Assembly: GCF_024223415.1 (NCBI RefSeq)
Contig: NZ_CP100500.1
Length of the DNA stretch: 64,000 nt
Origin: Escherichia coli
GTDB lineage: Bacteria; Pseudomonadota; Gammaproteobacteria; Enterobacterales; Enterobacteriaceae
Strand: one strand, 5' to 3'
The notes under the pieces: generated by a model
The model's database searches: none
The model's input: only the letters and a program-made list of their open reading frames with translations
What the model was told of the DNA's origin: nothing
Position numbers and translations under genes: made by a program
Part shown: positions 7,398-31,149 of the stretch, piece after piece
Layout: the number at the start of each line of letters is the position of its first letter
Position numbering within the stretch: the stretch's first letter is position 1

Positions 7398-8876
7398 TTA
7401 CGCATTCGACCAGCTCTGGATCGAATCCGCATTCCCCAATTCCCCATGCATCACTTCATACGATTTTTTCAGGATCACATCAGTATGTTTGGTTAGGTCT
7501 TTGAAAATGCCTTTATTCATCGCGTCGTAGCGTTTGGCATTGCTCTCAATCGGTATAAAGATATCTTTCACGCGAACCATTTTATCGACAGCCGTTGCGT
7601 AATCCGGGTATAGCCCCAGACCTACCGCTGTATTAATCGCTGCCCCCAGGCTTGCACAACCGTTAATGGCGTTACGGCGTGCCGGAAGGTTGAACACGTC
7701 GGCAAAAATCTGCATAAACAGATCGCTGTTCGAACCGCCGCCAGTAATGATCACATGCTTTGCAAAGTGATTCATTTCATTACACATATTGTCGTAATTG
7801 TTCTTCAGCGTCAGCGCCACGCTTTCCAGTATAGAACGATATATCCATGCGTAATCCATGCTGGAATCAAAGCCGATCATAATCCCACGTTTGTAGGGTT
7901 CCCACGGGTTGGTCAGCCAGTCCAGCACCGTCATCAGACCATTACAGCCAGGCGGCACACAAGAAGCTTTTTTGTTGAGCAAATCTTCCGGTGAAAGATC
8001 CTGTGCTTTGGCATCCTGAATTAACGACTCGCCTAGCATGTCGCGCAGCCAGCTCACCGTCCACATGCCTTTACGGATACCGTAACCTTCATACAGCAAT
8101 GTTTGCGGAATAGAAGACATAATCGGCCAGTACGCCACCGGATCTTTCGGCAGTGCTTTGCCGTTCATCATCAATGCGATGTAAGTGCCAAGAGAAATTA
8201 CCGCCGTTTCATCATCCAGTAATCCGGCCCCCAGAGCTTCTACCGGTTTATCACTGGTGGTACAAACAACCGGCAGTCCTGCCGGGAAATGTGTCGCCAG
8301 TGCGGCTTGTGGTGTGATATGTCCGAGGACGGTGCCAGGCATTTGCACATCAAACAGCATATGACGGGGGATATTAAACTTATCCATTACCGCAGCATCT
8401 TCACTCCATGCCCAGCTCTTATAATCCACCGGCCACTGACCAAAATAGTTGGAGATATTGTCTTTAAACTCGCCGGTTAAGCGATGCGTCAGATAACCCG
8501 AAAAAGAGGTGACATAGGCCACGTCAGGATTAGTGTGTTCGTAGGGACGCGTTACGCGTGCATCCTGCCAGCTAATCAATGGCGCAGCTGGCGTGCCATC
8601 GGCTTTCAATAACGCACGGCAGCAACGGATGGATCCCAGACCAATACCGACAATATCTTCTTTATTCCCGGCAAACTGACTCATCAAATCGTGACCGGCA
8701 AAACATAATGATGCCCATAAATCGTCGTCAGGATGTTCTGCGGTATCGGCATCTGGCGTGTGCATCGGCTGCAATAAGCCTTTACCTTCGCAAACCACAT
8801 TACCTTCCAGATCGTACATCACCACTTTTGTGCTCTGACTTCCGCCATCAATCCCTATGATGTATTTTTTCGACAT
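7398..8876 (-). CDS. ygcE: FGGY-family carbohydrate kinase
   Basis: 492-aa ORF; FGGY kinase N-terminus (YIIGIDGGSQSTKVVMYD) and position next to CRISPR array as in K-12. Confidence 0.9.
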   Translation of the reverse strand: MSKKYIIGIDGGSQSTKVVMYDLEGNVVCEGKGLLQPMHTPDADTAEHPDDDLWASLCFAGHDLMSQFAGNKEDIVGIGLGSIRCCRALLKADGTPAAPLISWQDARVTRPYEHTNPDVAYVTSFSGYLTHRLTGEFKDNISNYFGQWPVDYKSWAWSEDAAVMDKFNIPRHMLFDVQMPGTVLGHITPQAALATHFPAGLPVVCTTSDKPVEALGAGLLDDETAVISLGTYIALMMNGKALPKDPVAYWPIMSSIPQTLLYEGYGIRKGMWTVSWLRDMLGESLIQDAKAQDLSPEDLLNKKASCVPPGCNGLMTVLDWLTNPWEPYKRGIMIGFDSSMDYAWIYRSILESVALTLKNNYDNMCNEMNHFAKHVIITGGGSNSDLFMQIFADVFNLPARRNAINGCASLGAAINTAVGLGLYPDYATAVDKMVRVKDIFIPIESNAKRYDAMNKGIFKDLTKHTDVILKKSYEVMHGELGNADSIQSWSNA

Positions 8877-8902
8877 GATTTTTCTCCTGTAATTTTCCTG
8901 GC

Positions 8903-10180
8903 TTACTTGCTGCTAGCTATTGCGGGGGCGCTATCAGCAGTACGAATTTTTTGGAACAGCAAAAAGGTAAAGACAATCACCATGGCAAGCGCCGCCATGC
9001 CCATCAGCCACATATTGCGGTAGGCTTCTGCTGCGGGCAGGGTGTCTTGCCAGTGGCCGATAATGGGGTAAACGAAGACATCCGGCAGGAATCCAATCAC
9101 CGAACAAATACCTACCGTGGTGCCCATAATGTAAGACGGTGTTCTCGCTTCGCCAGGGCAGGCCCAGTACAGCCCGCGTGAGGCGTAACAGGTGAATCCC
9201 AGCAGTAAAATCAGGCCAATCCCCATCGCGACCGATTGCGGGTTAGAGTTCGTGACGAGCAGGGCAGTCAGTGCCAGCAGGCCGATGATGGAAAGGATTT
9301 GAATCACGCGGGTAGGGGATTTCACTTTGCTGTAGGTGGTGATTATGCCGCCAAGTGGGCCGCACAGCGCGCGGAATATTTTGTTGATCACAATCCCCAT
9401 GTAGCTCGCCGCCACCAGCGACATGCCGTACATTTCGGTCAGATAGTTGGTGGAGTAACTCAGAATGGCGTAGATGGTGAAGACACCAAAAATCACCATG
9501 CTGCAATACCAGGTGGTGCTGATGCGCAAAACGGCCAGGATGTCGCTAAGCTGGAATGATTGTTTTTCTTCGTTATTGGCACTGCGCAGGTTGTTGTTAT
9601 CGCTAACAAAAAACCAGCACAGAATCCCCAACAAGATGTAAACCACACTGTAGATGATAATGACCGTTTTCAGGCTGGCGCTGTCATCCGGTGCAAAGCG
9701 AGAAAAAACCCACATGGTAAACACTGCCAGCGACATTACACCGACGCCGCGCAGCCCTTCCATCCAGCCCATAATTTTCCCTTGCTCGCTATGATCGCCA
9801 AGCAACGATGCGGCTTTAATCGACACCGACCACAGCATTAAAATCGTTGTTATCGCAAAGGCGACCTGAATACAGAGCATTACCCACAGCGGTGGATACG
9901 TTGCCATTAACAGACCCAGTAATCCGGTAATGATCATCGCGGAAGTAATCATTTTGCGGTGTGAAAATTTATCGGCAATAACGCCGCTGGGGGCATAAAG
10001 AATAATAGCCGCAATACCAAAGGTACTCATTATTAAACCTATCTCGGTATTGCTGAATCCCATAAATTTCGCCATGGGAATTTGATAAATATAACGTAAA
10101 TAAGCCAGGTCGAAACTAACGCCGCCGCTAAAACTAATTATCGCGAGGGTTATCCAACGGCGATATGAGTTGTGTTGCAT
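8903..10180 (-). CDS. yqcE: MFS-family transporter
   Basis: 425-aa ORF with ~12 hydrophobic segments; gene order matches K-12 yqcE. Confidence 0.85.
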   Translation of the reverse strand: MQHNSYRRWITLAIISFSGGVSFDLAYLRYIYQIPMAKFMGFSNTEIGLIMSTFGIAAIILYAPSGVIADKFSHRKMITSAMIITGLLGLLMATYPPLWVMLCIQVAFAITTILMLWSVSIKAASLLGDHSEQGKIMGWMEGLRGVGVMSLAVFTMWVFSRFAPDDSASLKTVIIIYSVVYILLGILCWFFVSDNNNLRSANNEEKQSFQLSDILAVLRISTTWYCSMVIFGVFTIYAILSYSTNYLTEMYGMSLVAASYMGIVINKIFRALCGPLGGIITTYSKVKSPTRVIQILSIIGLLALTALLVTNSNPQSVAMGIGLILLLGFTCYASRGLYWACPGEARTPSYIMGTTVGICSVIGFLPDVFVYPIIGHWQDTLPAAEAYRNMWLMGMAALAMVIVFTFLLFQKIRTADSAPAIASSK

Positions 10181-10358
10181 ATCGTATTCCCATTTGTAAT
10201 AGACAAAAAAAAGAGAAAAGTAAGCCGCCCTTTCAGGTGGATTACTTTTCTCAGGTCTCTAGTAATTGAAATAATAAATAACATGGAAAGCAGAGGTGTT
10301 GTGTGAGAGTAATCACGCTTCTGCTTTTTAAAACTATTTGATAATACGAATATCACAC

Positions 10359-10374
10359 TGTGATTACGATCACA
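10359..10374. promoter_or_regulatory. Predicted CRP-binding site (TGTGA-N6-TCACA, perfect half-sites) in yqcE-ygcW divergent intergenic region
   Basis: tgtgattacgatcaca read directly in sequence; embedded in longer palindrome atcacactgtgattacgatcacat. Confidence 0.6.
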
Positions 10375-10427
10375 TTAGCAGTTATGTCCTTATGCTAAAA
10401 ATTATCTCCAGTTACCAGAGATAATGA

Positions 10428-10474
10428 GAAAGGTAACTTCCCTCTCGCGGGGGAAGTTACCTTTCTTTTTTTTT
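10428..10474 (+). terminator. Strong intrinsic terminator/attenuator hairpin in the 5' leader of ygcW (15-bp perfect stem, 8-nt loop, 9-T run)
   Basis: gaaaggtaacttccc (10428-10442) pairs with gggaagttacctttc (10451-10465), followed by TTTTTTTTT 10466-10474; ends 24 nt before ygcW ATG. Confidence 0.75.
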
Positions 10475-10498
10475 GCCTTACGGAAATTGGAGCTAACT

Positions 10499-11284
10499 AT
10501 GTCAATCGAATCTCTCAATGCGTTCTCAATGGATTTTTTTTCCCTGAAAGGTAAAACCGCAATTGTTACCGGCGGGAATAGCGGTTTAGGCCAGGCATTT
10601 GCCATGGCGTTGGCCAAAGCAGGCGCAAATGTCTTTATTCCAAGTTTTGTCAAAGATAACGGCGAAACAAAGGAAATGATTGAAAATCAGGGTGTTGAGG
10701 TGGACTTCATGCAGGTGGATATCACCGCAGAAGGCGCGCCGCAGAAGATTATCGCTGCCTGCTGTGAGCGTTTCGGTACAGTTGATATTCTGGTTAACAA
10801 TGCCGGTATTTGTAAGCTGAATAAGGTGCTGGACTTCGGTCGTGCCGACTGGGACCCGATGATTGATGTGAACCTGACCGCCGCATTCGAGTTAAGCTAC
10901 GAAGCGGCAAAAATTATGATCCCGCAGAAAAGCGGTAAAATCATTAATATCTGTTCATTGTTCTCTTACTTAGGTGGACAATGGTCACCTGCATATTCTG
11001 CTACTAAACATGCTCTTGCCGGATTCACCAAAGCTTATTGTGATGAACTAGGTCAATATAATATTCAGGTAAATGGTATCGCCCCTGGCTATTATGCAAC
11101 AGATATTACGCTGGCGACACGCAGTAATCCAGAAACCAATCAGCGCGTTCTTGATCATATTCCGGCAAACCGTTGGGGCGATACTCAAGATTTAATGGGC
11201 GCAGCCGTATTCCTCGCAAGTCAGGCATCGAATTATGTCAACGGGCATTTATTAGTGGTCGATGGCGGTTATTTAGTGCGCTAA
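10499..11284 (+). CDS. ygcW: Short-chain dehydrogenase/reductase (SDR)
   Basis: ORF 10424-11284; preferred ATG 10499 (GGAG RBS 6 nt upstream), giving 261 aa; TGGNSGLG Rossmann motif and YxxxK. Confidence 0.9.
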   Translation: MSIESLNAFSMDFFSLKGKTAIVTGGNSGLGQAFAMALAKAGANVFIPSFVKDNGETKEMIENQGVEVDFMQVDITAEGAPQKIIAACCERFGTVDILVNNAGICKLNKVLDFGRADWDPMIDVNLTAAFELSYEAAKIMIPQKSGKIINICSLFSYLGGQWSPAYSATKHALAGFTKAYCDELGQYNIQVNGIAPGYYATDITLATRSNPETNQRVLDHIPANRWGDTQDLMGAAVFLASQASNYVNGHLLVVDGGYLVR

Positions 11285-11353
11285 CCCATAACGGTGGTTT
11301 CTGTTTTCTCTTATTAATGATTATTCCATTTTTATTATCAGGAAGGAATTACT

Positions 11354-12808
11354 ATGTCTTTATCTCGCGCAGCGATTGTCGACCAGCTAAAGGAAATTGT
11401 TGGTGCAGATCGCGTAATTACCGATGAAACAGTATTAAAGAAGAACAGTATTGACCGTTTTCGTAAATTTCCGGATATTCATGGTATTTATACTTTGCCG
11501 ATTCCGGCTGCGGTCGTAAAACTCGGTTCCACAGAACAAGTCTCCCGTGTGCTGAATTTTATGAATGCGCACAAAATTAACGGTGTGCCGCGTACCGGTG
11601 CTTCCGCCACCGAAGGTGGGCTGGAAACTGTTGTAGAAAACTCGGTGGTGCTCGACGGCTCCGCCATGAATCAAATCATTAATATTGATATTGAGAATAT
11701 GCAGGCGACGGCGCAATGTGGCGTTCCCCTGGAAGTGCTGGAAAACGCGTTGCGTGAAAAAGGTTACACCACGGGGCACTCTCCGCAGTCAAAGCCGCTG
11801 GCGCAGATGGGCGGCCTGGTAGCAACCCGCAGTATCGGGCAGTTCTCCACACTCTACGGTGCAATCGAAGATATGGTCGTTGGTCTGGAAGCAGTATTGG
11901 CTGATGGCACCGTCACACGCATTAAAAACGTGCCACGCCGCGCGGCTGGCCCGGACATTCGTCACATCATCATCGGCAACGAAGGTGCATTGTGCTATAT
12001 CACTGAAGTAACAGTGAAAATCTTTAAATTCACCCCGGAAAACAACCTCTTCTACGGCTATATCCTGGAAGACATGAAAACCGGCTTCAACATCCTGCGT
12101 GAAATCATGGTGGAAGGGTATCGTCCGTCGATCGCTCGTTTGTATGACGCTGAAGATGGCACCCAACACTTCACCCATTTTGCCGACGGAAAATGTGTGC
12201 TGATCTTTATGGCTGAAGGTAACCCTCGCATTGCGAAGGCGACGGGCGAAGGGATTGCGGAAATCGTTGCCCGCTACCCGCAATGCCAACGCGTGGACAG
12301 CAAGCTGATCGAAACCTGGTTTAACAACCTGAACTGGGGACCGGATAAAGTGGCTGCCGAACGTGTGCAGATCCTCAAAACCGGCAACATGGGCTTTACT
12401 ACCGAAGTGTCCGGCTGCTGGAGCTGCATCCACGAAATCTACGAAAGCGTTATTAACCGTATTCGTACCGAGTTCCCGCACGCCGACGACATCACTATGC
12501 TGGGCGGTCACTCCTCTCATAGCTATCAGAACGGCACCAACATGTACTTCGTCTACGACTACAACGTTGTCAACTGTAAGCCGGAAGAGGAAATCGACAA
12601 GTACCACAATCCGCTCAACAAAATCATCTGCGAAGAAACCATTCGCCTCGGCGGTTCGATGGTGCACCACCACGGTATCGGTAAACATCGCGTTCACTGG
12701 AGCAAACTGGAACACGGCAGCGCGTGGGCGTTGCTGGAAGGGCTGAAAAAGCAGTTCGATCCTAATGGCATTATGAATACGGGTACTATCTATCCGATTG
12801 AAAAATAA
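11354..12808 (+). CDS. ygcU: FAD-linked oxidoreductase (GlcD/alkyl-DHAP-synthase-like FAD-binding PCMH family)
   Basis: 484-aa ORF; FAD-binding domain-like N-terminal region; order matches K-12. Confidence 0.88.
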   Translation: MSLSRAAIVDQLKEIVGADRVITDETVLKKNSIDRFRKFPDIHGIYTLPIPAAVVKLGSTEQVSRVLNFMNAHKINGVPRTGASATEGGLETVVENSVVLDGSAMNQIINIDIENMQATAQCGVPLEVLENALREKGYTTGHSPQSKPLAQMGGLVATRSIGQFSTLYGAIEDMVVGLEAVLADGTVTRIKNVPRRAAGPDIRHIIIGNEGALCYITEVTVKIFKFTPENNLFYGYILEDMKTGFNILREIMVEGYRPSIARLYDAEDGTQHFTHFADGKCVLIFMAEGNPRIAKATGEGIAEIVARYPQCQRVDSKLIETWFNNLNWGPDKVAAERVQILKTGNMGFTTEVSGCWSCIHEIYESVINRIRTEFPHADDITMLGGHSSHSYQNGTNMYFVYDYNVVNCKPEEEIDKYHNPLNKIICEETIRLGGSMVHHHGIGKHRVHWSKLEHGSAWALLEGLKKQFDPNGIMNTGTIYPIEK

Positions 12809-12901
12809 TGTGTCAGGCAGCGTTCCGCGATGACGGGGCGTTGCCTTTTCGGCTTCTCAGGCGAGAAGCCGTTCTTATTACCGGACAATGAAGGGGTAAA
12901 G

Positions 12902-14239
12902 ATGAACACTTCACCGGTGCGAATGGATGATTTACCGCTTAACCGTTTTCACTGCCGCATTGCTGCGCTCACTTTCGGCGCACACCTGACCGACGGTTAT
13001 GTTCTCGGCGTCATTGGTTACGCCATTATTCAGCTTACGCCCGCCATGCAACTGACGCCGTTTATGGCGGGAATGATCGGCGGCTCGGCGCTCCTTGGTT
13101 TGTTTCTTGGCAGCCTGGTTCTTGGGTGGATCTCCGACCATATTGGTCGGCAAAAAATCTTCACCTTCAGCTTTTTGCTGATTACGCTCGCTTCGTTCTT
13201 GCAATTTTTTGCCACCACGCCAGAGCATCTTATTGGGCTGCGCATTTTGATCGGCATTGGTCTGGGAGGCGATTACTCAGTAGGTCACACCTTGCTGGCT
13301 GAATTTTCCCCGCGCCGCCATCGCGGTATTTTGCTGGGCGCATTCAGCGTGGTGTGGACCGTAGGCTATGTGTTGGCAAGTATTGCCGGACATCACTTTA
13401 TTAGCGAAAGCCCGGAGGCCTGGCGCTGGCTGCTGGCATCGGCAGCTCTGCCCGCGTTGTTGATTACGTTATTACGCTGGGGAACGCCAGAATCGCCACG
13501 CTGGCTACTGCGCCAGGGGCGTTTTGCAGAAGCTCACGCTATCGTGCATCGCTATTTTGGTCCCCATGTTTTACTGGGCGATGAAGTGGCAACGGCGACC
13601 CATAAACACATCAAAACCTTGTTCTCTTCGCGCTACTGGCGGCGCACGGCGTTTAACAGCGTCTTCTTTGTCTGCCTCGTAATCCCATGGTTTGTGATTT
13701 ATACCTGGCTGCCAACTATCGCCCAGACTATTGGACTGGAAGATGCGCTGACTGCCAGCCTGATGCTTAATGCGTTGTTAATTGTGGGCGCGCTGCTGGG
13801 ATTAGTTCTGACGCACCTGCTGGCACATCGCAAGTTTTTGCTGGGAAGTTTTTTGCTGCTGGCGGCAACGCTGGTAGTGATGGCCTGTTTGCCTTCCGGC
13901 AGTTCATTAACGCTACTGCTTTTTGTTCTCTTCAGCACCACCATTTCGGCAGTCAGTAATCTGGTGGGCATTTTGCCTGCGGAAAGTTTTCCTACTGACA
14001 TTCGCTCGCTGGGCGTCGGTTTTGCCACCGCCATGAGTCGGTTGGGGGCGGCGGTAAGTACTGGCCTGCTGCCGTGGGTGCTGGCGCAGTGGGGAATGCA
14101 AGTCACCTTATTGCTCCTGGCGGCAGTGTTGTTGGTTGGTTTTGTTGTGACCTGGCTATGGGCACCAGAAACCAAAGCCCTCCCGCTGGTGGCGGCGGGA
14201 AATGTAGGAGGTGCGAATGAACATTCTGTTAGCGTTTAA
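12902..14239 (+). CDS. ygcS: MFS-family transporter
   Basis: ORF 12830-14239; preferred ATG 12902 giving 445 aa; multiple hydrophobic segments and MFS-like GxxxDxxGRR-type motif (ISDHIGRQK). Confidence 0.85.
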   Translation: MNTSPVRMDDLPLNRFHCRIAALTFGAHLTDGYVLGVIGYAIIQLTPAMQLTPFMAGMIGGSALLGLFLGSLVLGWISDHIGRQKIFTFSFLLITLASFLQFFATTPEHLIGLRILIGIGLGGDYSVGHTLLAEFSPRRHRGILLGAFSVVWTVGYVLASIAGHHFISESPEAWRWLLASAALPALLITLLRWGTPESPRWLLRQGRFAEAHAIVHRYFGPHVLLGDEVATATHKHIKTLFSSRYWRRTAFNSVFFVCLVIPWFVIYTWLPTIAQTIGLEDALTASLMLNALLIVGALLGLVLTHLLAHRKFLLGSFLLLAATLVVMACLPSGSSLTLLLFVLFSTTISAVSNLVGILPAESFPTDIRSLGVGFATAMSRLGAAVSTGLLPWVLAQWGMQVTLLLLAAVLLVGFVVTWLWAPETKALPLVAAGNVGGANEHSVSV

Positions 14240-14996
14240 AGCCGAACCGGATGCCGGAATGCTGGCGGAAAAAGAGTGGCAGGCGGCGGCTCAGGGTAAT
14301 AGCGGACCGGATGTTTCGCTACTGCGAAGTTTACTCGGTGCTGATGAACAGGCTGCCGCCGCGCTGCTGTTGGCGCAGAGAAAAAACGGTACGCCGATGT
14401 CTTTAACCGCGTTGAGCATGGGGGATGAACGGGCGTTACACTGGCTGCGCTATCTCATGGCTCTTGGGTTTGAGGAAGCTGTATTGCTGGAGACGGCGGC
14501 AGATCTGCGCTTTGCGTCGGAATTTGTCGCTCGCCATATTGCCGAATGGCAGCGTCAGAATCCGCTGGATCTGATAATTACCGGCTGCCAAAGCAGCGAA
14601 GGGCAGAATGGGCAAACGCCATTTTTGCTGGCGGAAATGCTGGGCTGGCCCTGCTTCACCCAGGTGGAGCGTTTCACTCTCGACGCGCTGTTTATCACCC
14701 TCGAACAGCGTACTGAACATGGGCTGCGCTGTTGCCGGGTTCGCTTGCCTGCGGTGATTGCCGTGCGTCAGTGCGGTGAAGTGGCCTTGCCAGTACCGGG
14801 AATGCGCCAGCGAATGGCTGCGGGGAAAGCGGAAATTATCCGTAAAACTGTTGCTGCCGAATTGCCAGCGATGCAGTGTCTGCAACTGGCAAGAGCAGAG
14901 CAACGACGCGGAGCGACGCTGATTGATGGGCAAACGGTAGCAGAAAAAGCGCAAAAGCTATGGCAGAACTATTTACGCCAAAGGATGCAGCCATGA
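14217..14996 (+). CDS. ygcR: Electron-transfer flavoprotein beta-subunit-like protein
   Basis: ORF 14211-14996 (start ~14217); ETF-beta-like; overlaps ygcS end and ygcQ start. Confidence 0.8.
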   Translation: MNILLAFKAEPDAGMLAEKEWQAAAQGNSGPDVSLLRSLLGADEQAAAALLLAQRKNGTPMSLTALSMGDERALHWLRYLMALGFEEAVLLETAADLRFASEFVARHIAEWQRQNPLDLIITGCQSSEGQNGQTPFLLAEMLGWPCFTQVERFTLDALFITLEQRTEHGLRCCRVRLPAVIAVRQCGEVALPVPGMRQRMAAGKAEIIRKTVAAELPAMQCLQLARAEQRRGATLIDGQTVAEKAQKLWQNYLRQRMQP

Positions 14997-15853
14997 ATAT
15001 CGCAATTGTGACAATAAATCAGGAGAATGCCGCAATAGCAAGCTGGCTGGCGGCACAGGATTTCAGCGGTTGTACCCTGGCGCACTGGCAGATTGAACCT
15101 CAGCCTGTAGTGGCGGAACAGGTGCTGGATGCGTTGGTGGAACAGTGGCAGCGAACGCCTGCGGACGTTGTTCTCTTTCCGCCGGGAACGTTTGGCGATG
15201 AACTGTCGACCCGGCTGGCCTGGCGTTTACATGGTGCAAGCATCTGCCAGGTGACTTCGTTAGAGATTCCAATCGTAAGCGTGCGCAAATCCCACTGGGG
15301 AAATGCGCTAACGGCGACGCTGCAAACAGAAAAACGCCCGCTATGTCTTTCCCTGGCGCGCCAGGCGGGAGCAGATAAAAATGCCACGTTGCCCTCTGGT
15401 ATTCAGCAACTGAACATAGTCCCAGGTGCGCTTCCGGACTGGCTGGTTAGCATAGAGAACCTGAAAAATGTTAGCCGCGACCCATTAGCTGAGGCCAGAC
15501 GGGTGTTGGTGGTAGGGCAGGGCGGAGAGGCAGATAACCAGGAAATCGCTATGCTGGCAGAAAAGCTGGGAGCCGAAGTGGGCTACAGTCGGGCGCGAGT
15601 GATGAACGGTGGCGTTGATGCTGAAAAAGTGATTGGTATTTCCGGACATCTGCTGGCACCTGAGGTGTGTATTGTTGTTGGCGCTTCTGGCGCAGCAGCG
15701 TTAATGGCGGGCGTGCGCAATAGCAAGTTTGTGGTGGCGATTAATCATGACGCCAGCGCTGCGGTATTTTCACAGGCAGATGTTGGCGTGGTTGATGACT
15801 GGAAAGTGGTGCTGGAGGCACTGGTGACAAACATTCACGCAGATTGCCAATAA
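14993..15853 (+). CDS. ygcQ: Electron-transfer flavoprotein alpha-subunit-like protein
   Basis: ORF 14960-15853; preferred ATG 14993 giving 286 aa; ETF-alpha-like C-terminal FAD-binding region. Confidence 0.82.
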   Translation: MNIAIVTINQENAAIASWLAAQDFSGCTLAHWQIEPQPVVAEQVLDALVEQWQRTPADVVLFPPGTFGDELSTRLAWRLHGASICQVTSLEIPIVSVRKSHWGNALTATLQTEKRPLCLSLARQAGADKNATLPSGIQQLNIVPGALPDWLVSIENLKNVSRDPLAEARRVLVVGQGGEADNQEIAMLAEKLGAEVGYSRARVMNGGVDAEKVIGISGHLLAPEVCIVVGASGAAALMAGVRNSKFVVAINHDASAAVFSQADVGVVDDWKVVLEALVTNIHADCQ

Positions 15854-15874
15854 CGTGTTGCCGGATGATCCTGC

Positions 15875-15955
15875 CTACGGTTCTGGCCTGGGGACTTGTA
15901 GGCCTGATAAGACGCGTCAAGCGTCGCATCAGGTGCTGAATGTCGGATGTGGCGT
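15875..15955. repeat. REP/BIME-type extragenic palindromic element(s)
   Basis: gtaggcctgataagacgcgtcaagcgtcgcatcaggtg and adjacent gatgtggcgtgtagcctac; characteristic E. coli REP sequence; boundaries approximate. Confidence 0.8.
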
Positions 15956-15999
15956 GTAGCCTACAAATCACACAAATTCAATTCGTTACGAATATCCCG

Positions 16000-16575
16000 T
16001 CAAAGCAATTTTTTCGCTAATGTCCAGACCCCGGTATTCGTGGTGGAAAGCGCCACGACACCCGCGTTAATCGCATTACGCGCATCTTCTTCATCGCAAA
16101 CCAGCCCACCGGCAATCAGCGGTTGGCGGATTTTCTCCGTCACCCAGCCCAGTACTTTGGGCATGCAGCCTGGCAGGATCTCAATACAATCCGGATTCGA
16201 TTGCGCAACTTGCTTATCAATGTTGTGAAACGAAATCGAATCAACAATAAACAGGCGATGAATACAGAAAAAACCTTCCGCTCTTGCCGCTTTTAGCATC
16301 GATGCTTTGGTGCTGATAATGCCGTCCGCCTCGGTCACCAGTTTCAAAAACTGAATCACGACTTCTTTATTTGACGCGCCTTCCAGCAAATCAACATGAA
16401 TAAAAGCATATTTCCCGGCGTTCTTAATCTTTTTAACGATATTACTGATGGTGCAGATATTGCCGTACAACACGGAAATAAACTGGCATTCAGAGTCGAT
16501 TGCCAGTTGCAGGCTGGCATTATCTTTTACGGCAGCAATCACCGGATTCTGGCGGAGCAGGTGTAAGAGGGGCAT
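16000..16575 (-). CDS. ygcP: GlpP-like glycerol-3-phosphate-responsive antiterminator family protein
   Basis: 191-aa ORF; family assignment from K-12 synteny and recall. Confidence 0.8.
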   Translation of the reverse strand: MPLLHLLRQNPVIAAVKDNASLQLAIDSECQFISVLYGNICTISNIVKKIKNAGKYAFIHVDLLEGASNKEVVIQFLKLVTEADGIISTKASMLKAARAEGFFCIHRLFIVDSISFHNIDKQVAQSNPDCIEILPGCMPKVLGWVTEKIRQPLIAGGLVCDEEDARNAINAGVVALSTTNTGVWTLAKKLL

Positions 16576-30521: not shown

Positions 30522-31149
30522 CCTTACATACCGGCCAGCTTTCGCCTGCGCAGTTGTTGCATCTGGTGGATCGCGGTGAATATGTGATGCATCAGTGGCT
30601 GTGGGATCTCTTCCCAGGCGGCAAAGAAAGGCAATTTCTTTATCGTCGGGAAGAACTCCAGGGCGCGTTTCGCTTTTTTGTCCTGTCGCAGGAACGCCCG
30701 GCGGAAAGTGAAATGTTCACCATCGAATGCCGACCATTTGCGTCGGAGTTGCGTACCGGACAATCGCTTTGTTTCAACCTGCGGGCGAATCCAACAATCT
30801 GTAAAGCGGGCAAGCGCCACGATCTGCTGATGGAAGCGAAACGGCAGGTGAGGGGGCAGGCGGAAGGAAGTGATGTCTGGTTGCATCAACAACAGGCAGC
30901 GCTGGACTGGCTGGCAGCGCAGGGGGAGAGAAGCGGTTTTACACTGCTGGATACCTCGGTTGATGCCTACCGACAACAGCAACTCCGGCGGGAAAACTCC
31001 CGACAACTGATCCAGTTCAGTAGCGTGGATTATACGGGGATGCTTACGGTCACCGATCCTGGGTTATTTCTGCAACGTCTGAGCCAGGGGTATGGCAAAA
31101 GCCGCGCGTTCGGCTGTGGTCTGATGCTGATCAAACCCGGAGCAGAGGC

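Follow-up and report, generated by a model that had tools for sequence, protein, structure and literature searches.

The intergenic region between the divergent E. coli genes yqcE and ygcW specifies two short leader transcripts, one for each of the flanking operons, and our analysis suggests that they form a twin switch in which cAMP-CRP activates both promoters and ligand-bound YgcP, a GlpP-family protein whose binding to the leader RNA we infer from sequence comparison and analogy, antiterminates both transcripts. We regard this reading as probable. A more far-reaching proposition, to which we give about an even chance, is that YgcP is a functional GlpP-family antiterminator that reads a GAGA-N-GAG loop code shared by all PF04309 proteins, B. 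subtilis GlpP among them, and gates a sugar- or polyol-phosphate pathway under the joint control of CRP and an inducer. The CRP site, the short RNAs and their 3′ ends are already known, and existing annotation describes YgcP as a putative antiterminator. Our contribution comprises the connection between these items, the twin leader, the covarying helix with its loop motif, and the association with PF04309 genes across phyla.

Throughout, the window denotes the whole 64-kb stretch of DNA that was analyzed, and positions are those of the window. It is 99% identical to K-12 at this locus; published K-12 coordinates were converted by subtracting the v3 coordinate from 2910772, v3 being equal to v2 plus 1979, and the conversion was checked by aligning the K-12 region. 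The yqcE/ygcW intergenic region is 318 bp long. On its minus-strand side, the yqcE coding sequence (8903-10180, ATG at 10180) heads the yqcE-ygcE operon (7398-10180), which encodes an MFS transporter and an FGGY kinase. On the plus-strand side, ygcW (10499-11284, ATG at 10499-10501, Shine-Dalgarno sequence GGAG at 10489-10492) heads the operon ygcW-ygcU-ygcS-ygcR-ygcQ (10499-15853), which encodes an SDR, an FAD oxidase, a transporter, ETF beta and ETF alpha. The gene ygcP lies at 16000-16575 on the minus strand and encodes a full-length PF04309 (GlpP-family) protein, a putative antiterminator. Judging from these annotations, the ygc gene set probably represents an uncharacterized catabolic pathway in which a sugar or polyol is phosphorylated and then oxidized. 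A KduD-like SDR, an FGGY kinase, a GlcD-like FAD oxidase, ETF alpha/beta and a transporter are kept together with YgcP from Clostridia to Enterobacterales (7398-16575 in the window; loci L056-L067). No match to the intergenic region was found in 359 of 5,426 complete E. coli genomes, indicating that it is absent or diverged in approximately 7% of strains. In one E. coli genome, NZ_CP080133.1, the match is confined to a 44-bp piece (10290-10333) that has the yqcE-proximal CRP site inside it. A 286-aa open reading frame that begins at an ATG within the ygcW terminator (10424-11284) was rejected as an over-extended old ygcW start, the conserved start being at 10499; an older intergenic probe label, IG2898371, suggests that the ATG at 10424 was once taken for the start of ygcW.

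The first-pass annotation of this DNA had proposed that a strong hairpin upstream of ygcW acts as an attenuator within the ygcW leader, and published transcriptome data bear this out. The primary transcription start of ygcW, mapped by dRNA-seq, is a cluster at 10405-10409 on the plus strand (Class I TSS RVS_(I)-2898388, v2 2898384-2898388; Romero et al., 2014, PMC4681348). A terminated short RNA of 73 nt, ecr2774 (10405-10478, plus strand; Table S5 of PMC4681348), whose sequence we checked, extends from this start to the hairpin; it is a short terminated transcript of the kind that the annotation had proposed to look for. The terminator spans 10426-10474, with the hairpin at 10426-10467 and a U9 run at 10466-10474. 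The 15 perfect pairs and nine Ts noted at first sight are indeed there, the former as the core of a hairpin of 19 pairs, and the T-run ends, as described, 24 nt before the ATG, which is at 10499 and not at 10500, and just before GGAG. The proposed fold calculation for 10420-10480 gave −31 kcal/mol (z = −7.8), and none of 200 shuffled sequences was equally stable. There is, as had been pointed out, no plus-strand gene upstream for the hairpin to serve, yqcE being encoded on the minus strand. A 3′ end detected by Term-seq at window position 10461, 38 nt upstream of ygcW, is supported by 40,640 reads, has a Rho score of 0.50, which classifies it as not Rho-dependent, and scores 15.8 as an intrinsic terminator (Adams et al., 2021, PMC7815308 supplementary file 3). 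A transcription start downstream of the hairpin had been named as the result that would speak against attenuation; the Class I start lies upstream, and the dRNA-seq list contains no start between either hairpin of the intergenic region and its own gene (PMC4681348). Given an upstream start, a 73-nt RNA and a Rho-independent 3′ end, the ygcW hairpin is a working terminator within the leader, in keeping with an attenuator: ygcW has a terminated leader, and the hairpin is a real stop signal there.

The yqcE side of the region is organized in the same way, which the first-pass annotation, correct on the ygcW half, had missed along with a second CRP site. Transcription of yqcE starts at 10266-10265 on the minus strand (Class I, v2 2898527-8; PMC4681348), and a northern-positive terminated leader RNA of 63 nt, ecr2775, covers 10203-10266 on that strand (Table S5 of PMC4681348). 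The intrinsic leader terminator (10205-10252, minus strand) consists of a hairpin at 10252-10213 and a U8 run at 10212-10205 that ends 24 nt before the ATG; its fold has an energy of −20.5 kcal/mol (z = −4.8). Term-seq places a 3′ end at window position 10216, 36 nt upstream of yqcE, with 1,557 reads, no Rho dependence and an intrinsic score of 11.4 (PMC7815308). Aligned with each other, the two halves of the intergenic region are paralogues over their whole length, so that the region as a whole is an inverted duplication. Each half contains, in this order, a CRP site, a TG-extended −10 element, the transcription start, a conserved block with the sequence TTACYAGAGA(2-3 nt)TGAGAAARGTAA, the terminator, the U-run, a Shine-Dalgarno sequence and the ATG. 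The upper stems of the two terminators have diverged in sequence while retaining their pairing. Searching the 64-kb window with a leader profile returned these two copies only; a weak profile match at 30625-30679 was dismissed, as it looked unrelated to the leader motif.

In the catalogue from which they come, ecr2774 and ecr2775 are listed as "potential novel sRNAs" and filed as "simple stem-loop, perhaps REP-like" (PMC4681348), and the TSS, sRNA and Term-seq entries at yqcE/ygcW are uncommented in the source papers (PMC4681348, PMC7815308). The Term-seq 3′ ends of both leaders fall within the hairpin's 3′ arm, 4-5 nt deep, and not in the U-run, and the RNA-seq boundaries of the short RNAs (10478 and 10203) lie just beyond the U-run. 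The ends inside the 3′ arm may reflect exonuclease trimming of the A-U-rich stem base. When the full ygcW leader was folded, positions 10404-10412 (UCUCCAGUU) paired with 10486-10494 (AAUUGGAG(C)) and covered the Shine-Dalgarno sequence, a possible additional block at the level of translation; this long-range pairing was kept out of the model, being conserved, as judged by eye, in close relatives only.

Each of the two leader promoters has a CRP site. CRP site 1, TGTGATTACGATCACA (10359-10374, centre 10366.5), serves the ygcW leader promoter; it is the perfect consensus that had been reported at these positions, and its spacing is fixed in other genera. CRP site 2, TGTGAGAGTAATCACG (10302-10317, centre 10309.5), serves the yqcE leader promoter and is likewise kept in other genera. 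An exact TGTGA-N6-TCACA occurs only once in the 64-kb window, at CRP site 1; with one mismatch allowed there are three matches, two of them in the yqcE/ygcW intergenic region, against 1.75 expected, so that by number alone these sites do not exceed chance. The reality of CRP site 1 rests instead on published binding: a CRP ChIP-seq peak coincides with it in ETEC H10407 (PMC4287617), and CRP binds it in vitro with a Kd of ~1.7 nM (PMC12871828). The extended −10 elements predicted from the sequence and from the homology of the two halves are TGcTAAAAA for ygcW (10393-10401, plus strand) and TGtTATTTA for yqcE (10275-10283, minus strand). In both halves a distance of 29.5 bp, as in class II promoters, separates the CRP centre from the start of the predicted −10 hexamer; relative to the mapped TSS cluster at 10405-10409, the centre of CRP site 1 is at −38.5 to −42.5, making the class II geometry (−41.5) approximate. 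This spacing points to activation of both leader promoters by cAMP-CRP. An extra TCACA half-site abuts CRP site 1 (TCACAcTGTGA, 10353-10363); the resulting short palindrome overlaps the left half of that site.

In both leaders an alternative helix can form, in which AGUUACY pairs with RGUAACU at the start of the terminator 5′ arm and encloses a GAGA-N3-4-GAGAAA loop. The 5′ strand of the ygcW antiterminator, AGUUACC (10410-10416, plus strand), pairs with GGUAACU at 10432-10438, which is shared with the 5′ arm of the terminator; the intervening purine-rich loop AGAGAUAAUGAGAAA (10417-10431; GAGA-N4-GAG) is a candidate recognition site for YgcP. The corresponding hairpin of yqcE (10240-10267, minus strand) is made up of the flank AAUUACU (10267-10261), the loop AGAGACCUGAGAAA (10260-10247) and the arm AGUAAUC (10246-10240). 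Among 91 unique leaders, 90 pair flank and arm at no fewer than six of the seven positions. One helix position alternates between G-C and A-U (64 and 26 leaders, one exception) and a second between C-G and U-A (22 and 65 leaders, four exceptions), and in Firmicute versions an A-U pair is replaced by G-C. Paralogous sites within one genome differ in their half-sites, each site being internally compensated.

The pairing was also assessed in a MAFFT alignment of 71 leaders, with slid partners and 500 shuffles as controls. The antiterminator helix is 90.7% paired, compared with at most 54.7% for slid partners, and three of its seven pairs change on both sides; no shuffle out of 500 reached the observed values, although these statistics overstate independence, since the compensatory changes stem from a handful of lineage-level events in sequences that are related. 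For the terminator, pairing is 86%, compared with at most 65%, and nine of its pairs change on both sides. Column 39 of the alignment, in the shared arm, pairs with the flank in 65 of the 71 leaders and with the terminator 3′ arm in only 24, so the position appears to be constrained by the antiterminator and not by the terminator. The non-Watson-Crick pairs of the helix are mostly G.U on the transcribed strand (25 cells of the alignment), which argues for pairing in RNA over a DNA operator. The loop has the consensus AGAGAYnnnGAGAAA, and its GAG and GAGA.A columns are invariant in the 71 leaders. On their own the two E. coli antiterminator hairpins have energies of only −6.7 and −1.4 kcal/mol and are no more stable than shuffled sequence; such weak hairpins fit a default-off switch that needs a stabilizing factor, and they fit the default-off state in LB and M9-glucose.

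YgcP matches PF04309 over the full length of the model (E = 1.6e-62), and this is its sole domain; structures have been solved for two related proteins, PDB 3kts and 1vkf, which bear the name "glycerol uptake operon antiterminator". A literature search for the function of ygcP found nothing, and B. subtilis GlpP is not among the best 120 homologues of YgcP. We searched 64 loci with YgcP relatives, taken from species-representative genomes, with a nucleotide profile of the leaders. Leader-bearing lineages include Enterobacterales, Vibrio, Listeria, Bacillaceae and Clostridium, and a PF04309 gene is present in every leader-bearing locus where this could be tested. Leaders head ygc-type operons in all 57 loci for which the module promoter region was fetched, despite rearrangements, and in all lineages a distance of 20-90 nt separates them from the first gene of the operon, which lies downstream on the same strand. 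Each Enterobacterales locus that includes sufficient flanking sequence has exactly one divergent leader pair; in Serratia, Pantoea and Erwinia this pair has the opposite orientation with respect to ygcP. In Vibrio the leaders likewise form a divergent pair, with CRP-like sites. In Listeria a single leader precedes an operon that contains the ygcP homologue itself (L056, L058, L060, L061 and L063, at ~8330-8400), which implies autoregulation. Two leaders, each behind a sigma-A promoter of its own, are present in a Bacillus species and in Clostridium sediminicola, and a single one, divergent from ygcP, in Thalassobacillus. No DNA-binding regulator was seen among the module genes examined.

The association also holds in reverse. 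A scan of metagenomes with the RNA motif alone, which has 22 specified bases, found the leader directly upstream of module genes in all five contigs recovered, and a YgcP homologue is encoded in four of them, that is, in all that extend far enough. The connection between hairpin and YgcP, suggested at first because a GlpP-family gene lies in the same island, thus gains comparative support: a covarying leader accompanies PF04309 genes across phyla, in a layout like that of glpD, and YgcP is its likely reader.

For the GlpP side, the comparison used one validated target, B. subtilis glpD, the 5′ UTR of which we took from the supplement of PMC9604022; placed alone behind constitutive promoters, this 5′ UTR confers GlpP- and glycerol-dependent control (PMC9604022). 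It reads ...ACGGUCC UGAGAUGAGGAGA GACCACAGC...terminator, and its flank GGUC is complementary to GACC at the start of the terminator 5′ arm, around a GAGA-U-GAG loop. A GAGA-N1-4-GAG signature occurs in 0.5% of random 45-nt windows. Two further loci, L064 and L065, in which a glpP-like gene is followed by a type 2 glycerol-3-phosphate oxidase gene, have leaders with a glpD-like layout. The ygc system and GlpP leader antitermination in B. subtilis, which acts on glpD, glpFK and glpTQ, have in common a PF04309 protein encoded beside its regulon, an intrinsic terminator in the 5′ UTR, termination by default, a helix between flank and terminator 5′ arm that encloses GAGA-N-GAG, and catabolite control on top. 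They differ in the helix, which is AGUUACY/RGUAACU in the ygc leaders but GGUC/GACC in glpD; a common purine loop within helices of different sequence is what would be expected if the loop is the element recognized by the protein. None of the sources consulted gives an RNA consensus for GlpP or the PF04309 family. The genes differ as well, being an SDR, an FGGY kinase, an FAD oxidase with ETF and transporters instead of glpF, glpK and glpD, so the ligand is probably not glycerol-3-phosphate; gene content suggests a different phosphorylated substrate as the inducer of YgcP. Catabolite control would act through class II CRP sites, whereas that of GlpP acts through CcpA/cre. Finally, the ygc system has two divergent leaders in one intergenic region of a Gram-negative host, and the dependence of these leaders on a protein is one that we infer.

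Other leader-binding proteins offer partial parallels. As with BglG and the RAT elements of SacY and LicT, a sugar-specific RNA-binding protein would stabilize a hairpin that is weak by itself and shares sequence with the terminator's 5′ arm in the leader, and the CRP-dependent promoter expected here has its parallel in the E. coli bgl operon. YgcP, however, has neither CAT nor PRD domains, the ygc RNA motif is unrelated to RAT, and YgcP would be controlled by ligand binding, not by PTS phosphorylation. HutP and TRAP are ligand-activated proteins that recognize short purine triplet repeats (NAG/GAG) beside a terminator; they are oligomeric rings that read 6-11 repeats, and their folds differ from that of YgcP. 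The ygc leaders, by contrast, have only two GAG(A) elements, situated inside a hairpin loop.

We propose that the switch would operate as follows. cAMP-CRP would turn on both divergent promoters, and within each leader of approximately 65-70 nt the strong terminator forms by default, so that polymerase stops ~25 nt short of the start codon; ecr2774 and ecr2775, as the published data show, are the products of this default termination. Alternatively, the first bases of the transcript, AGUUACY, could pair with RGUAACU to give the weak hairpin with its GAGA-N3-4-GAGAAA loop. Having taken up a phosphorylated intermediate of the pathway, YgcP would attach to the purine loop and lock the helix of flank and arm; the inducer, by homology with B. 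subtilis GlpP and its glycerol-3-phosphate, is plausibly the product of the YgcE kinase. Once held, the antiterminator would sequester 13 of the 19 nt of the terminator 5′ arm and leave an upper stem that is away from the U-run. The covariation suggests that a terminator adjacent to the U-run would thereby be prevented, allowing read-through into ygcWUSRQ and yqcE-ygcE. Expression would need cAMP-CRP and inducer together.

The main competitor for the role assigned to YgcP is the RNA itself. The small hairpin with its purine loop might bind the pathway metabolite directly, as a riboswitch, leaving YgcP with some other role. Small aptamers are known to exist, a conserved alternative structure is present, and the RNA element is associated with the enzyme module no less faithfully than with YgcP; given that YgcP and the enzyme module always occur together, the comparative data fit a protein-dependent switch and a metabolite-binding RNA alike. 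We nevertheless consider a riboswitch unlikely. The conserved core amounts to a helix of 6-7 bp and a loop of 13-18 nt, further conserved helices being absent from the 71-leader alignment, and a scan of window positions 9000-12000 against Rfam 15, at E values up to 5, gave matches at chance level only and no known riboswitch or leader element. Moreover, glycerol-type leaders, for which control is known to need the GlpP protein, have this loop signature as well, and every locus open to the test does contain the PF04309 gene.

Three other explanations fit the data poorly. That the short RNAs are trans-acting sRNAs, or the terminators constitutive dampers or insulators, could account for the abundance of both RNAs in non-inducing conditions and agrees with their cataloguing as candidate sRNAs. 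Against such roles, which seem quite improbable to us, the element stays fixed 20-90 nt before the first gene of its operon, on the same strand, after every rearrangement; a conserved antiterminator pairing would be purposeless in a constitutive terminator; and ygcW and yqcE would be left with no other mapped promoter. The repeat AGTTACY...RGTAACT might also be a DNA operator for a dimeric repressor just downstream of the transcription start, and its location at +3 to +33 is typical of operators. This possibility becomes very remote when the sequences are compared, for the non-canonical pairs are G.U on the sense strand and not symmetric changes, differing and internally compensated half-sites at paralogous sites of one genome are not what an operator predicts, and the element is kept behind CRP-type and sigma-A-type promoters alike; nor do the module genes examined include a candidate repressor. 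The sRNA catalogue itself suggests the last category, in which the hairpins would be repeated extragenic elements, REP-like or other, that lack any specific role. We give this almost no credence: the intergenic region has a median of one place per genome in 5,067 E. coli genomes, the window contains no more than two copies of the element and other loci have two each, and its position is conserved relative to the genes.

If antitermination by YgcP is correct, it would place a second protein antiterminator with substrate specificity beside BglG in E. coli K-12 and would be the first GlpP-type system outside Gram-positive bacteria, and it would explain two orphan "sRNAs" and two Term-seq 3′ ends. 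The comparison also supplies the PF04309 family with a concrete RNA consensus. The switch is directly testable in E. coli K-12, where a leader-gfp reporter offers a route to the inducer and substrate of the ten-gene ygc island, which is conserved across phyla.

Some individual loci depart from the common arrangement. Serratia microhaemolytica (L045) encodes a YgcP homologue that is 70% identical, but the 10 kb downstream contain neither ygc-module genes nor a leader motif. Limnobaculum eriocheiris appears to have a single terminator between ygcW and yqcE (L032:13829-13993), into which the two divergent leaders have been fused; the two promoters and the two antiterminator flanks have apparently been lost, and the locus is possibly inactivated. 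In Clostridium sediminicola, the second full promoter and leader lie within the cluster, between the kinase and oxidase genes (L067:4268-4327).
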